Assembly: GCF_048403405.1 (NCBI RefSeq)
Contig: NZ_CP183129.1
Source of the DNA: Escherichia coli
Lineage (GTDB): Bacteria; Pseudomonadota; Gammaproteobacteria; Enterobacterales; Enterobacteriaceae
Strand: one strand, 5' to 3'
DNA length: 64,000 nucleotides
Under the pieces are notes generated by a model. That model was not told the DNA's origin. It searched no databases and was given only the letters and a program-made list of their open reading frames with translations. A program made the translations under genes and the position numbers. This document shows, piece after piece, positions 12,947 to 61,526 of the stretch (its first letter is position 1; each line of letters starts with the position of its first letter).

Positions 12947-12952
12947 AGACCA

Positions 12953-12980
12953 AAAAAAACCCGCTGATTAAGCGGGTTTT
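12953..12980. terminator. Bidirectional terminator between crcB and cspE
   Basis: AAAAAAAACCCGCTGATTAAGCGGGTTTT hairpin between convergent genes. Confidence 0.8.
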
Positions 12981-12999
12981 GAATTCTTGCTGACGTATC

Positions 13000-13209
13000 T
13001 TACAGAGCGATTACGTTTGCAGCAGAAGGGCCTTTGGCACCGTTAGTGATTTCGAACTCTACGCGCTGACCTTCAGCAAGAGTTTTAAAACCATTAGTCT
13101 GGATTGCAGAGAAGTGTACGAACACGTCTTTGCTGCCGTCTTCCGGAGTAATGAAACCGAATCCTTTGGACTCATTAAACCACTTAACGTTACCTTTAAT
13201 CTTAGACAT
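13000..13209 (-). CDS. cspE: Cold-shock-domain protein CspE
   Basis: 69-aa CSD protein ([20 protein letters not shown]...); ORF-track N-terminal extension rejected. Confidence 0.95.
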
Positions 13210-13383
13210 CAAAATTACCTTTACATGAAAAATAGACACAAATGCTGTGTCGGTTACCAGTACACCAATTGTGGTACGCTTTGTCCAGTGCAACTTTACT
13301 AAAAAGTGATAAAAGTCGCGTTATTTTTGATGTTACTTATTTTAGTTATTGATTTTAAAGAAGTTACTAAAACTTCATTTGTC

Positions 13384-13944
13384 TCAAAACTGAAAGCGCA
13401 TCCAGGCAAAGTACACATTGCCATTGTTGTAGGTACCCGGAATGTAGGTCATCTGAAAAGTCACTGGGCCATAACCCACGGAGGCCAATGGCAGTAGAAC
13501 CGGGAGAGGGATGTAATTCCAGTTATCGCGTGCCGTTACGCCAGCGGTGAATCCCAGACCTAAATGAAAATTTTCATCCGCCAGCGGTCGCCAGGTACTT
13601 TCCCATCCGTATCCGGCAATCGGTTCCCATTTGTTCCACGAGTCCTTAAATGCCATGGCATACAGGCCATGCCAGTTTCCTTTTTCATCCCAACGCGACT
13701 GACCAAAACCGCCACCCCACGGTCGCTCGTTATAGCGATCGGTTTTTTCTTTGTCGTAAGCGAAACGTGCATGCCAGGTGATGGCAGGAATATATAAATC
13801 ATAATGTTCAGGCTGTTGCCAGGTTTGTGCAATATTTTCTCTAAACGTTGTCATCCACTCATCTGCGTTAGCAAAAACTTTACCAACGCTGATTAACTGA
13901 ATAAAAACAAAGGAAAAGATAGCGACATATTGACTCACGTTCAT
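13384..13944 (-). CDS. pagP: Lipid A palmitoyltransferase PagP
   Basis: 186 aa from MNVS...; outer-membrane beta-barrel acyltransferase; 8-codon ORF-track extension rejected. Confidence 0.9.
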
Positions 13945-26303: not shown

Positions 26304-26449
26304 TCCTCTGATTTACAAAACACGCTAATTCGTCTTCCATAAACCATGACGATTAAGATTTATACATAATGCGCTACATTGAGGAATTCCCTGAATGTGA
26401 CGCAAATCACTTCAAAGAGTGAGCAACAGTCAGTATCATCATGTGAGTT

Positions 26450-26484
26450 AAACCCTCGCCGCCTGACGGTGAGGGTTTTCTTTT
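26450..26484 (+). terminator. Rho-independent terminator after rna
   Basis: AAACCCTCGCCGCCTGACGGTGAGGGTTTTCTTTT. Confidence 0.8.
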
Positions 26485-26532
26485 GGGTATGTTTATCTGC
26501 GACACTCGCAGTACCGACGACATGGAGTAAAA

Positions 26533-30147: not shown

Positions 30148-30518
30148 CTATACTTCCTCCGTGTTTTCGATGAGATGTAAGGTAACCAATTTTTGCCGAT
30201 TCGGCTAATGCGTTTCCATTATCAAATCGATAAGTTTTACCTTACAACCTTCGTAAGACAACTTTGTGAACTTTGCACCGCCAGCGGCGATAAAAAGTAA
30301 AATGGCCCCCTTTCCAGGTGACCGTGTAATCTGAACTACCCTTTGGTATCTTCAGCGCCTGCCTGCAGGCTGAGGTGTTGCCCTTACAAATGCAACAACG
30401 ACATGGATTACAACACCCTCATAAACAAAGGGCAATCACCTGATCTAAGCTCTTACCTATGACAGTGATAGGTTATGCCTTTTACCCGACTTTTGCACTG
30501 ACTGAAAAGGACAAATTA
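30148..30518. promoter_or_regulatory. Divergent ahpC / dsbG promoter region, expected to carry OxyR-dependent control
   Basis: 371-bp intergenic region between divergent genes; contains palindrome CCTATGACAGTGATAGG about 60 bp upstream of dsbG; exact OxyR site not resolved. Confidence 0.45.
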
Positions 30519-56338: not shown

Positions 56339-58579
56339 ATGAACAAGAAGATTCATTCCCTGGCCTTGTTGGTCAATCTGGGGATTTATGGGGTAGCACA
56401 GGCACAAGAGCCAACCGATACTCCTGTTTCACATGACGATACCATTGTCGTTACCGCCGCCGAGCAGAACTTGCAGGCACCTGGCGTTTCGACCATCACC
56501 GCAGATGAAATCCGCAAAAACCCGGTTGCCCGCGATGTGTCGGAGATCATCCGTACCATGCCAGGCGTTAACCTGACCGGTAACTCCACCAGTGGTCAGC
56601 GTGGGAATAACCGACAGATTGATATTCGCGGCATGGGTCCGGAAAACACGCTGATTTTGATTGACGGCAAGCCGGTAAGCAGCCGTAACTCGGTGCGTCA
56701 GGGCTGGCGTGGCGAGCGCGATACCCGTGGTGATACCTCCTGGGTGCCACCTGAAATGATTGAACGTATTGAAGTTCTGCGTGGTCCGGCAGCTGCGCGT
56801 TATGGCAACGGCGCGGCGGGCGGCGTGGTTAACATCATTACCAAAAAAGGCAGTGGTGAGTGGCACGGCTCGTGGGACGCATATTTCAATGCGCCAGAAC
56901 ATAAAGAGGAAGGTGCCACCAAACGCACTAACTTTAGCCTCACCGGTCCGCTGGGCGACGAATTCAGCTTCCGCTTGTATGGCAACCTCGACAAAACTCA
57001 GGCTGACGCGTGGGATATCAACCAGGGCCATCAGTCCGCGCGTGCCGGAACGTATGCCACGACGTTACCAGCCGGGCGCGAAGGGGTGATCAATAAAGAT
57101 ATTAACGGCGTGGTGCGCTGGGACTTCGCACCATTACAATCGCTGGAACTGGAAGCAGGTTACAGCCGCCAGGGTAACCTGTATGCGGGCGATACCCAGA
57201 ACACCAACTCTGACTCCTATACCCGCTCGAAATATGGCGATGAAACCAACCGTCTGTATCGCCAGAACTACTCGCTGACCTGGAACGGCGGCTGGGATAA
57301 CGGCGTGACCACCAGCAACTGGGTGCAGTACGAACACACCCGTAACTCGCGTATTCCGGAAGGTCTGGCGGGCGGTACCGAAGGGAAATTTAACGAAAAA
57401 GCGACACAGGATTTCGTCGATATCGATCTCGATGACGTGATGCTGCACAGCGAAGTTAACCTGCCGATTGATTTCCTCATTAACCAGACGCTGACGCTGG
57501 GTACGGAGTGGAATCAGCAGCGGATGAAGGACTTGAGTTCCAACACCCAGGCGCTCACCGGGACGAATACCGGCGGCGCTATTGATGGCGTGAGTGCCAC
57601 CGACCGTAGCCCGTATTCAAAAGCAGAAATTTTCTCGCTGTTTGCCGAAAACAATATGGAGCTGACTGACAGCACCATCGTAACGCCGGGGCTGCGTTTC
57701 GATCATCACAGCATTGTTGGCAATAACTGGAGTCCGGCTCTAAACATATCGCAAGGTTTAGGCGATGACTTCACGCTGAAAATGGGCATTGCCCGTGCTT
57801 ATAAAGCGCCGAGTCTGTACCAGACTAACCCAAACTACATTCTCTACAGTAAAGGTCAGGGCTGCTATGCCAGCGCGGGCGGCTGCTATCTGCAAGGTAA
57901 TGATGACCTGAAAGCGGAAACCAGCATCAACAAAGAGATTGGTCTGGAGTTCAAACGCGACGGCTGGCTGGCGGGTGTGACCTGGTTCCGTAACGATTAT
58001 CGCAATAAGATTGAAGCGGGCTATGTGGCTGTAGGGCAAAACGCAGTCGGCACCGATCTCTATCAGTGGGATAACGTACCGAAAGCGGTGGTTGAAGGTC
58101 TGGAAGGATCGTTAAACGTACCGGTTAGCGAAACGGTGATGTGGACCAATAACATCACTTATATGCTGAAGAGTGAAAACAAAACCACGGGCGACCGTTT
58201 GTCGATCATCCCGGAGTATACGTTGAACTCAACGCTGAGCTGGCAGGCACGGGAAGATTTGTCGATGCAAACAACCTTCACCTGGTACGGCAAGCAGCAG
58301 CCGAAGAAGTACAACTATAAAGGTCAGCCAGCGGTTGGACCGGAAACCAAAGAAATCAGTCCGTACAGCATTGTGGGTCTGAGCGCGACCTGGGATGTGA
58401 CGAAGAATGTCAGTCTGACCGGCGGCGTGGACAACCTGTTCGACAAACGTTTGTGGCGTGCAGGTAATGCCCAGACCACGGGCGATCTGGCAGGAGCCAA
58501 CTATATCGCCGGTGCCGGGGCGTATACCTATAACGAGCCGGGACGTACGTGGTATATGAGCATTAATACTCACTTCTGA
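56339..58579 (+). CDS. fepA: Ferric-enterobactin TonB-dependent outer membrane receptor
   Basis: 746 aa from MNKKIHSLALL...; TonB box DTIVVTA; C-terminal ...NTHF. Confidence 0.95.
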   Translation: MNKKIHSLALLVNLGIYGVAQAQEPTDTPVSHDDTIVVTAAEQNLQAPGVSTITADEIRKNPVARDVSEIIRTMPGVNLTGNSTSGQRGNNRQIDIRGMGPENTLILIDGKPVSSRNSVRQGWRGERDTRGDTSWVPPEMIERIEVLRGPAAARYGNGAAGGVVNIITKKGSGEWHGSWDAYFNAPEHKEEGATKRTNFSLTGPLGDEFSFRLYGNLDKTQADAWDINQGHQSARAGTYATTLPAGREGVINKDINGVVRWDFAPLQSLELEAGYSRQGNLYAGDTQNTNSDSYTRSKYGDETNRLYRQNYSLTWNGGWDNGVTTSNWVQYEHTRNSRIPEGLAGGTEGKFNEKATQDFVDIDLDDVMLHSEVNLPIDFLINQTLTLGTEWNQQRMKDLSSNTQALTGTNTGGAIDGVSATDRSPYSKAEIFSLFAENNMELTDSTIVTPGLRFDHHSIVGNNWSPALNISQGLGDDFTLKMGIARAYKAPSLYQTNPNYILYSKGQGCYASAGGCYLQGNDDLKAETSINKEIGLEFKRDGWLAGVTWFRNDYRNKIEAGYVAVGQNAVGTDLYQWDNVPKAVVEGLEGSLNVPVSETVMWTNNITYMLKSENKTTGDRLSIIPEYTLNSTLSWQAREDLSMQTTFTWYGKQQPKKYNYKGQPAVGPETKEISPYSIVGLSATWDVTKNVSLTGGVDNLFDKRLWRAGNAQTTGDLAGANYIAGAGAYTYNEPGRTWYMSINTHF

Positions 58580-58618
58580 TGCTAACGTCAGATTGTTGAC
58601 AAAGTGCGCGTAGTTCAT

Positions 58619-58716
58619 GCCGGATGCGGCGTGAACGCCTTATCCGGCCTACAAAAATCTTGCCAATTCAATATATTGCAGGACCACGTAGGCCTGATAA
58701 GCGTAGCGCATCAGGC
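58619..58716. repeat. REP / BIME element (two inverted REP units) in fepA-entD spacer
   Basis: GCCGGATGCGGCGTGAACGCCTTATCCGGCCTAC and inverted GTAGGCCTGATAAGCGTAGCGCATCAGGC. Confidence 0.7.
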
Positions 58717-58753
58717 AGTTTTGCGTTTGTCATCAGTCTCTAATATGGTCGAC

Positions 58754-59374
58754 ATGAAAACTACGCATACCGCCCTCCCCTTTGCCGGAAATACGCTGCA
58801 TTTTGTTAAGTTCGATCCGGCGAGTTTTTGTGAGCAGGATTTACTCTGGCTGCCACACTACGCGCAACTGCAACACGCTGGACGTAAACGTAAAACAGAG
58901 CATTTAGCCGGACGGATCGCTGCAGTTTATGCGCTGCGGGAATATGGCTATAAATGTGTGCCCGCAATCGGCGAGCTACGCCAACCTGTGTGGCCTGCGG
59001 GGGTATACGGCAGTATTAGCCACTGTGGGGCTACGGCATTAGCCGTGGTATCTCGTCAACCGATTGGCATTGATATTGAAGAAATTTTTTCTGCGCAAAC
59101 AGCGGCAGAATTGACAGACAACATTATTACACCAGCAGAACACGAGCGACTCGCAGAATGCGGTTTAACCTTTTCTCTGGCGCTGACACTGGCATTTTCC
59201 GCCAAAGAGAGCGCATTTAAGGCAAGCAAGATACAGGCCGCTCAAGGTTTTCTGGATTATCAGATAATTAGCTGGAATAAACAGCAGATCATCATTCGAC
59301 TAGAGGATGAGCAGTTTGCTGTGCACTGGCAGATAAAAGAAAAAATAGTCATAACGCTGTGCCAACACGATTAA
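58754..59374 (+). CDS. entD: 4'-phosphopantetheinyl transferase EntD
   Basis: 206 aa from MKTTHTALPF...; upstream part of the 256-aa ORF overlaps the REP region. Confidence 0.85.
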   Translation: MKTTHTALPFAGNTLHFVKFDPASFCEQDLLWLPHYAQLQHAGRKRKTEHLAGRIAAVYALREYGYKCVPAIGELRQPVWPAGVYGSISHCGATALAVVSRQPIGIDIEEIFSAQTAAELTDNIITPAEHERLAECGLTFSLALTLAFSAKESAFKASKIQAAQGFLDYQIISWNKQQIIIRLEDEQFAVHWQIKEKIVITLCQHD

Positions 59375-59495: not shown

Positions 59496-59648
59496 CTACT
59501 TCTTCGGTTCGTAAGCGAGAACAGCCTTAAACTCAATATTACGTTCCTTCACCGTAAACTCACACAGCGAGTCGCGGACCAGAAGCGTAAATCCCAGCAC
59601 CGTTAAACACAGCACTATGACTGCCACAAGGGCATATTTCGTCAGCAT
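59496..59648 (-). CDS. hokE: Hok-family type I toxin (HokE)
   Basis: 50 aa [31 protein letters not shown]...AYEPKK; GGAGG RBS; Hok-family TM plus conserved Cys. Confidence 0.75.
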
Positions 59649-59745
59649 GTTTATATTGCCTCCATGCGAAGAAGGGACTACCATCCGAGTTGTTCAGGTT
59701 TGGGTAGGTAGCCCCAGGGTGTACTGACCCCAAAAAGTTGGACAG

Positions 59746-60597
59746 TTAAACACGAGGCATATAGGTCTGATTCCGATATTCAATTGGAGTCAGACCTTTT
59801 AATTTCAGGCTAATTCTTCTGCTGTTGTAGTATTCAATATATTCCGTAACAGCATCCTTCAGTTCGCTTATATTACTGAACTCATCAAGATAAAAACACT
59901 CCGACTTTAAGGTTCCAAAGAAACACTCCACCACAGCATTATCCAGACAATTGCCTTTTCTGGACATGCTTTGTTTAATACCATGTTCTTTAAGGATATT
60001 TTGATATCTTCTCATACGATACTGCCATCCCTGGTCAGAGTGCAGAACAGGATGCTCGTGAGGATTAAGCTTTTTGAATGCCTGATCGAGCATATTCTCA
60101 ACCATGTTCATCACTGGTCTTTCCGAAAGGCTGTAAGAAATAACTTCGTTGTTGAAGAGATCTATTACTGGAGACAAATACAGCTTGCGCCCATTGACTA
60201 CAAATTCAGTAACATCGGTAACCCACTTCTCGTTTGGCCGCGTAGCCTTGAAATCTCTTTGGAGAACATTAGGGGCGGTTTGCCCTACCTCTCCTCTGTA
60301 AGAGCGGTATCGCTTGACCTTAATCGCTGCTTTAAGTGAGAGGGTTCCCATCAGGCGCTGAACAGCTTTATGGTTAATCTGTTTCCCTTCTCGATGAAGA
60401 GACAGCGTTACCCTACGGTATCCGTATCGGCCTCTATTCTCGTGATAAATCTCACCAATACGCTTTTTAACGTCCGCATACTTGTCAGGCTTGCTGAGAG
60501 CCTTTAGATGGTAATAAAACGTACTGCGCGGTATCTCCGCAGCCCTGAGAAGCTCATCAAGAGGATAAAACTGCCTTAGCTCGTTGAGTACTTTTAC
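59746..60597 (-). CDS. insK: IS150 orfB (DDE integrase/transposase catalytic part, InsK), expressed by -1 frameshift fusion to orfA
   Basis: Open frame continuous from about 60651 to stop at 59746; no ATG before MGTLSLK (60351); upstream in-frame residues read ...[32 protein letters not shown]...; 5' boundary approximate. Confidence 0.8.
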
Positions 60598-61115
60598 TTT
60601 TTCGTGGGATGAGCTAAGGCTTTCAGCTTTTTTAGATACATAAGCCGCGTTTCAAGAAATCGAACTTGCCTTTCAAGATCCTCAATGCGTCGGTCTTTTG
60701 ACAGCTCCAATGCTGATGCCGCTTTTTCTGGATCAACTGATATTGCAATGTTTCTTTTGGTGCCAATCTTGAGCGCGCGTAAACCAGCTTCTCCGCGCTC
60801 TTCATAGACCTTCAGCCACCTGGCTACAGAACCACTACCAGCAAGCATAAAGTGAGCAGCAGCCTGATTAAGGGACATGTGCTGCTCGATCACAGCTTTC
60901 ACGACCTTAATACGCAACTCTGGATCAGCACTAACGCCTTTAGGTTTGGGAATTAAACCTTTTTCTCCATGTTTTTCATAGAGGGCAACCCATGTCCTGA
61001 CCTGGGTTCGGGGGACACCAAAACGTGCCGAGATGATCCTGTAACCATCATCAGTTGTGAAGTAGTGATTCACGACTTCAAGGCGCTTTTCAAAAGGGTA
61101 TTTTGGCTTTGACAT
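60594..61115 (-). CDS. insJ: IS150 orfA protein (HTH DNA-binding, InsJ)
   Basis: 173-aa ORF ending ...ALAHPTKK. Confidence 0.9.
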   Translation of the reverse strand: MSKPKYPFEKRLEVVNHYFTTDDGYRIISARFGVPRTQVRTWVALYEKHGEKGLIPKPKGVSADPELRIKVVKAVIEQHMSLNQAAAHFMLAGSGSVARWLKVYEERGEAGLRALKIGTKRNIAISVDPEKAASALELSKDRRIEDLERQVRFLETRLMYLKKLKALAHPTKK

Positions 61116-61526
61116 ATTAGGGGCTATTCCATTTCATCGTCCAACAAAATGGGTGCAGTACAGGGTTGATAGAAATATCTCCTGGGGCTTCATCTTTCCA
61201 GACCTCAGAGTAAACCTGAAACCGGAAAGCTTCAGGCACCCGCCGTTATCTTACCCTTCCTCAGCAAAATAGCTGTTTATTTATACAGTGAGTCCTGTTT
61301 CGGACTTCTCACTCCTAATTTGATCAACTGAAGCTGAACCCGTTTTTTTCTGCATGCCTCAATCGTCAAAATTCTTCGCCACCAGCCAGCTCTGCCATAA
61401 CTTGTCACATTGCAAAAGTAGCCAAATTGCTTCAGTCACCATCACCAAAAAAAAGAAACATTCCAGAACTTCCGCATCTCGCCCAGCCGCTCCGACTTCT
61501 ATACTGAATAGAAAACGCCAACATAA

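Follow-up and report, generated by a model that had tools for sequence, protein, structure and literature searches.

A complete BIME-1 repeat in the fepA–entD intercistronic spacer of Escherichia coli

The spacer between fepA and entD of Escherichia coli contains what is, with near certainty, one complete BIME-1 (RIP/RIB), a unit of ~150 nt that occupies most of the 174 nt separating the two genes. By analogy with characterized REP elements and on the strength of an RNA 3′ end mapped inside it, we favour the reading that this element stabilizes the upstream message and attenuates the downstream one, with a probability of roughly 0.6. A short GC hairpin stood at the site before the BIME, which took its place and probably also its role. 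Elements of this kind are well known and the biology is of the ordinary textbook type; what is new, and mildly so, is only that an ancestral hairpin was replaced exactly and that both alleles still segregate. Throughout, the window is the whole 64,000-nt stretch of E. coli DNA that was analysed, and coordinates are positions in it.

Anatomy of the fepA–entD spacer

In the enterobactin locus of E. coli, fes lies on the minus strand and fepA and entD on the plus strand, with hokE and IS150 downstream of entD. The coordinates of fepA (56339..58579, plus strand; 746 aa, stop TGA at 58577-58579) come from the open reading frame list and from the RefSeq annotation of a genome with an identical stretch, with the start codon checked; entD (58754..59374, plus strand) encodes a phosphopantetheinyl transferase of 206 aa that starts MKTT. 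The intercistronic spacer (58580..58753, plus strand) is 174 nt long, equal in length to its MG1655 counterpart at 610080..610253. E. coli strain 7/2 is 100% identical to the window over 58400-58900, and its RefSeq record places fepA and a 621-nt entD 174 nt apart, the same spacing as in MG1655.

Several other features were recorded in the window. hokE occupies 59496..59684 on the minus strand, and just past it lies IS150 of the IS3 family (59700..61250), with orfA at 60594..61115 and orfB at 59746..60351, both on the minus strand; a match to a sok-type antisense RNA (61086..61241) adjoins IS150. The same hokE/IS150/sok-type arrangement is found in 502 complete E. coli genomes and is absent from strain 7/2, whose fepA–entD junction is identical and which has two hokE copies in that place. 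Unrelated Rfam matches above threshold are an rnk leader (26379..26487), a cspA-type thermoregulator (12952..13394) and STnc70 (30292..30385). An antisense open reading frame of 129 aa (58229..58618, minus strand) begins at an ATG within the BIME’s left motif and extends back across the 3′ end of fepA; it is most likely spurious.

Two REP (palindromic) units lie in the spacer in opposite orientation, at positions that the sequence-only reading had given exactly to the base. The downstream unit, of the z1 type (58688..58716, plus strand, 29 nt; GTAGGCCTGATAAGCGTAGCGCATCAGGC), starts with GTAG, is the reverse complement of GCCTGATGCGCTACGCTTATCAGGCCTAC and matches exactly what we take to be the consensus of z1, the short Z unit. 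The upstream unit, of the y type (58619..58652, plus strand; GCCGGATGCGGCGTGAACGCCTTATCCGGCCTAC), ends in CTAC and agrees at 34 of 34 positions with the opening 34 nt of the REP consensus published for E. coli, GCCGGATGCGGCGTGAACGCCTTATCCGGCCTACGA, which 224 of the 356 REP elements annotated in E. coli have in common; the tail of the z1 unit conforms to the consensus originally given by Stern, CTTATC(c/a)GGCCTAC (both from PMC12306157). The identity of the repeats, which the earlier reading had left to hinge on an alignment to the REP consensus, is thus settled decisively. The two units are mutually inverted, their arms at 58639-58652 and 58688-58701 being 93% complementary. Each unit occurs once in the window at 0 mismatches, where shuffled sequences lead one to expect 0, and no further REP copies were found in the 64-kb window. 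Per E. coli genome, the median number of matching places is at least 34 with a query centred on the linker and at least 40 with a 501-nt query.

That two REP units sit in the spacer, as had been claimed, is correct but incomplete, because they belong to a full BIME-1 of ~150 nt with a linker and flanking motifs. Alignment with two further copies, in the mscK–rsmS and gloC–aspC intervals, delimits the complete unit to 58590..58740 (no strand assigned), composed in order of a left motif, the y REP, an L linker, the z1 REP and a right motif. The left flanking motif (58590..58617, plus strand; GATTnnTnnCAAAGTGCGCnTnGTTCAT) and the right flanking motif (58717..58740, plus strand; AGTTTTGCGTTTGTCATCAGTCTC), presumably those named A and B, are common to the paralogous copies, as are the units and the linker core; the outer part of the left motif, 58590-58603, and the segment 58726-58739 form a 14-nt inverted repeat. 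The L linker measures 35 nt (58653..58687, plus strand), is covered by a match to the Rfam family ES036 at 58654..58695, and contains an IHF-consensus-like core at 58666..58678 (plus strand; ATTCAATATATTG) with 1 mismatch to the IHF consensus. Within its core stretch, AATTCAATATATTG, the sequence AATTCAATATATTGCA is invariant in all orthologues and in the mscK–rsmS paralogue and has one base altered in the gloC–aspC copy, unlike the ends of the linker, which vary among the aligned copies.

BIME-1 elements are defined as a z1 and a y unit, in single copy, with a long and conserved L linker between them in which an IHF site is frequent (PMC3333891). The spacer element has the inverted y and z1 units and the long conserved L linker, forms one extragenic unit and has many copies in the genome.

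RNA structure, mapped 3′ end and expression

The predicted fold of the spacer RNA has a free energy of −71.1 kcal/mol, for which comparison with shuffled sequences gives z = −5.6. The 3′-end mapping of the fepA transcript that the sequence-only reading had proposed as a check turns out to be in print already: the curated Term-seq list of Adams et al. (eLife 2021, PMC7815308) holds a 3′ end on the minus strand of MG1655 at 610126, with entD starting 47 nt further downstream; the flanking sequence printed with it is the locus-specific linker. This end appears in the M63 glucose sheet only, one of three conditions, with an average count of 31462, and the Rho data of the same study were taken in LB only, a condition in which fepA is repressed (PMC7815308). 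Its equivalent in the window is 58707 (plus strand), inside the element. When the segment 58580-58707 is folded, two hairpins result, the second of which pairs 58639-58652 with 58688-58701 and carries the linker on top. In terms of these K-12 orthologue data, 58707 is 6 nt downstream of the inter-unit stem predicted between the y 3′ arm and the z1 5′ arm, an offset in line with the expected trimming distance. Trimming of 3′ ends back to a protective stem has been described for Rho-dependent transcripts (PMC6061677), and by analogy the end at 58707, which may have arisen by termination, trimming or cleavage, gives the picture expected of a 3′ end trimmed to such a stem.

Two pairings are available to this RNA. 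The end position favours the inter-unit stem; a compensatory change in E. albertii, G58692A with C58716T, falls within the z1 unit’s own stem and favours that one, in a comparison of within-unit and inter-unit covariation that draws on few substitutions.

No intrinsic terminator, that is, a GC hairpin with a U-tract, is predicted in 58300-59000, and the sequence that follows the stems, AGUUUUGCG or AGCGUAG, has no U run. A promoter scan predicted no sigma-70-like promoter in the spacer; the left flanking motif does contain a perfect TTGACA hexamer at 58596-58601, with no −10 partner at 16–18 nt. Control of translation through ribosome stalling reportedly requires, according to Liang, Rudd and Deutscher in 2015, a REP within ~15 nt of the upstream stop, and here the y unit starts 39 nt past the stop of fepA. 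Downstream of the mapped end, the stretch 58710-58820 is richer in C than in G (0.29 versus 0.18), and the 24 nt ahead of entD contain no Shine–Dalgarno motif; a C-rich stretch of this kind that lacks a Shine–Dalgarno motif would allow Rho to load.

In the literature, fepA and entD form one Fur-regulated operon (PMC4676285, PMC10763504, PMC4145685). RNA-seq of iron-replete K-12 gives DESeq baseMean values of 347.6 for fepA and 67.0 for entD, a difference of ~1.4-fold per nucleotide, and in the same set the two genes shift in parallel. A published response has a log2 fold change of −3.37 for fepA, a 10-fold fall, versus −0.98 for entD, a 2-fold and thus weaker response (PMC8910356). These differences in expression suggest a polarity that looks modest.

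The mechanism that we favour would run as follows. The BIME-1 would be transcribed within the Fur-regulated fepA–entD operon, and its RNA would adopt a very stable structure that lacks a U-tract and hence would not serve as an intrinsic terminator. Transcripts that end or are cut downstream, possibly with a contribution from Rho, would be trimmed by 3′-to-5′ exonucleases until these are blocked, as we infer, at the stem of the y 3′ arm and the z1 5′ arm, leaving a protected fepA mRNA with its 3′ end near 58707. entD would be carried solely by transcripts that pass through the element and survive, and with no Shine–Dalgarno motif of its own it would be expressed at a low level, partly uncoupled from that of FepA. 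To go by the expression data, the attenuation of entD would be modest.

Allele history of the site

Among 5426 complete E. coli genomes, 5345 carry the BIME between fepA and entD and 59 carry a hairpin allele instead, which together make up the 5404 genomes with an intact fepA–entD junction. Comparison of the alleles places the 153-nt segment 58588..58740 exactly where the others have a 28-nt, 12-bp GC hairpin, CTTCCTCCCCCGATATTTGGGGGAGGAA, between flanks common to both, TGATGCTAACG on one side and TAATAT(G/A)GT(C/T)GACATG on the other; the spacer of the hairpin allele is 49 nt long. The hairpin allele occurs, for example, in strains GF131, 2016C-3878 and SCU-172; GF131 and strain 7/2, the latter with the BIME, share an identical FepA protein accession. 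Since the 59 genomes lack the BIME, it is dispensable.

Beyond E. coli, the BIME is present at the site in representatives of E. albertii, E. whittamii and two more Escherichia species. A genome labelled E. fergusonii has a spacer of 49 nt, and three Citrobacter species and one Klebsiella have spacers of ~50–70 nt; an EntD peptide-pattern search returned Escherichia only, and Citrobacter and Klebsiella were reached by protein search and their contigs. Each of these BIME-less spacers folds into a GC hairpin of 10–14 bp at −23 to −32 kcal/mol, and at 5 of the 12 consensus pairs both partners have changed with pairing preserved. On this outgroup comparison the hairpin is ancestral and the BIME derived. 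To judge from the spacers compared, a stem-loop between fepA and entD goes back to the ancestor, and its presence at the site in every case is the strongest comparative argument that structure there matters.

One record complicates the timing. CP086604.1, labelled E. fergusonii, is 96.9% identical to the window over the 3′ kilobase of fepA, as near as K-12; either there was an exchange of the ent locus with E. coli or the species label is wrong, and this closeness weakens a species-tree reading of when the BIME arrived.

The BIME-less hairpins share further features. In all the spacers concerned (L009:1449-1503, which is the CP086604.1 record, and those of L010, L011, L012, L013 and L016), the 5′ arm is pyrimidine-rich, as in CUUCCUCCCCC, which resembles an anti-Shine–Dalgarno sequence; the 3′ arm of the ancestral hairpin is purine-rich and contains GGAGG, at least ~15 nt upstream of the entD start. 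Such a hairpin may sequester a ribosome-binding-like sequence. In C. amalonaticus, a T-rich run follows the hairpin in terminator-like fashion.

The spacer is better conserved across Escherichia species than either of the genes that adjoin it. Between the window and E. albertii, it differs at 8 of 174 positions, while entD is 85% identical and the 3′ end of fepA ~91%; the K-12 orthologue differs at 4 spacer positions. This conservation could reflect selection at the site or gene conversion among copies of the repeat. Within E. coli, entD itself (58754..59374) is unusually divergent, the window sharing 93.4% identity with K-12 and as little as ~90% with other strains, compared with 97–99% for the 3′ kilobase of fepA (57580..58579).

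We tentatively propose, at somewhat less than even odds, that in the BIME-1 the site acquired a functional substitute for an intercistronic hairpin that is ancestral and shared across genera, with the two alleles now at ~99% BIME and ~1% hairpin in E. coli. If this is true, the site offers a natural allelic pair in which a selfish repeat was co-opted for the job of a dedicated RNA stem-loop, and a ready-made system for measuring what REP elements do to adjoining genes. With hairpin and BIME alleles at one site, what REP sequences do, a matter of long debate, could be tested cleanly.

Alternative roles and known systems

The main rivals to a stabilizer and attenuator are a neutral passenger and an IHF site that works at the DNA level. 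A passenger would be a selfish repeat mobilized by RAYT (TnpA-REP), its effects on RNA incidental and unselected, and the idea has a foundation: REP/BIME sequences have been proposed to be non-autonomous mobile elements that are cut and recombined by a REP-associated transposase (PMC3333891, PMC2817692), the site is polymorphic in E. coli with 59 hairpin genomes, and the inserted segment is the whole repeat unit, terminal inverted repeat included. We nevertheless consider it unlikely: the BIME is near fixation (5345 of 5404 intact junctions), and E. albertii, E. whittamii and further Escherichia lineages have kept it while their flanking genes changed more. It also came in place of a structured element and not in addition to one, and a real RNA 3′ end maps to its interior. 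A main role in DNA, with IHF on the linker and gyrase or Pol I on the REP units making the site one that structures the nucleoid or insulates supercoils, would account for the invariance of the core AATTCAATATATTGCA in the orthologues and one of the two aligned paralogues next to variable linker ends. It also draws on the 1-mismatch IHF match at 58666-58678 and on the binding of IHF to BIME-1 linkers reported by Boccard and Prentki in 1993, as relayed by the papers that cite them. The consensus match, however, is by itself no better than chance (64 such matches in the window versus 54 expected), so that the IHF binding that we infer for this linker follows from its membership of the BIME-1 family and not from the consensus scan. 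With a model REP having had no effect on chromosome compaction in a recent study, and with the ancestral hairpin alleles lacking any IHF-type site, a primarily DNA-level role is improbable.

Two further readings would make the element a gene or part of one. The ES036 model scores 42.2 bits on the linker, above its gathering score of 37.6, and the region of the y unit partially matches naRNA4, the Rfam family derived from REP325, so the element might be taken to encode a trans-acting small RNA, either ES036/CssrF or an HU-binding RNA like the naRNAs. But ES036 amounts to the linker of BIME-1 together with the beginning of the REP unit that follows, and it also matches the gloC–aspC copy of BIME-1; naRNA4 scores 38.2, under its threshold of 59.5; the spacer has no predicted promoter; and the model of chromosome compaction by HU and naRNAs was not reproduced in a recent study. 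Reads of this kind are more simply decay intermediates, and we regard a small RNA gene as very improbable.

The remaining possibility, to which we give next to no credence, is that the repeat encodes an extension at the N terminus of EntD. An open reading frame does run from a GTG at 58604 to 59374 and would yield 256 aa versus the annotated 206, exactly 50 codons more (58604..58753, plus strand), and automated callers have produced 247-aa versions of EntD, as in cluster P0001 with its 2481 member sequences. Against this, all EntD orthologues from Escherichia, Citrobacter and Klebsiella start at the methionine equivalent to that of MKTT and are 206–207 aa long; the Pfam domains of the 256-aa frame start no earlier than residue 87; and in the hairpin alleles, with their 49-nt spacer, the other in-frame ATG, at 58745, is ATA. 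The extension peptide, AGCGVNALSGLQ...VGLISVAHQA, is the repeat’s own open frame, published as RU-3 (PMC2759123) and seen also in intergenic copies of the repeat. The earlier judgement that the 50-codon extension is an artefact of reading through the repeat is therefore borne out by the orthologue starts, the Pfam boundaries and the RU-3 frame, and the extension is spurious. Public EntD entries are often 236–260 aa long (clusters P0001, P0009, P0014, P0031 and P0032), their starts having been called inside the BIME. Annotation of EntD should begin at 58754, since gene callers repeatedly extend it through the repeat.

The first sequencing of entD, in 1989 (Armstrong et al.; Coderre and Earhart), reportedly already revealed REP sequences at this site. 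Our literature search found nothing on REP in the fepA–entD spacer specifically, and a search for ES036 by name brought up unrelated papers only. The element in the spacer shows no structural difference from the BIME-1, RIP or RIB elements of Gilson, Bachellier and Hofnung, of Boccard and Prentki (1993) and of Oppenheim (1993): it has the inverted y and z1 units, the L linker with an IHF-type core, the single copy, the extragenic position and the shared flanking motifs. RU-3 (Delihas 2007, PMC2759123) has a 103-nt core of y, linker and z1 with the same frame, AGCGVNALSGLQ...VGLIS.AHQA, and differs in having been described as a new repeat; on these sequence features, RU-3 would appear to be BIME-1. 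Rfam RF02751, ES036 (CssrF), is filed as a small RNA gene. Its model, 43 nt long, exceeds the gathering score at 58654..58695; at fepA–entD, what it recognizes is the linker of a repeat, with no sign that this is transcribed independently.

In function, the closest relatives would be the elements of malE–malF, hisJ–hisQ and REP325 (yjdM–yjdN), which likewise lie between co-transcribed genes of which the upstream product is needed more. The fepA–entD element also resembles known REP stabilizers and attenuators in its stable RNA structure without a U-tract and in the 3′ end mapped there. According to a 2026 preprint, REP325 stabilizes its upstream gene and attenuates its downstream gene, and 146 tandem gene pairs that contain REP are biased towards the upstream gene, results that match the stabilizer and attenuator model already put forward in the sequence-only reading. 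The textbook view, in which REP and BIME sequences between co-transcribed genes shape mRNA 3′ ends, is mostly confirmed here, with a difference of scale: REP325 is a 12-hairpin array of the BIME-2 type with a ~35-fold ratio of upstream to downstream expression, whereas fepA–entD has a single BIME-1 and an apparently modest polarity.
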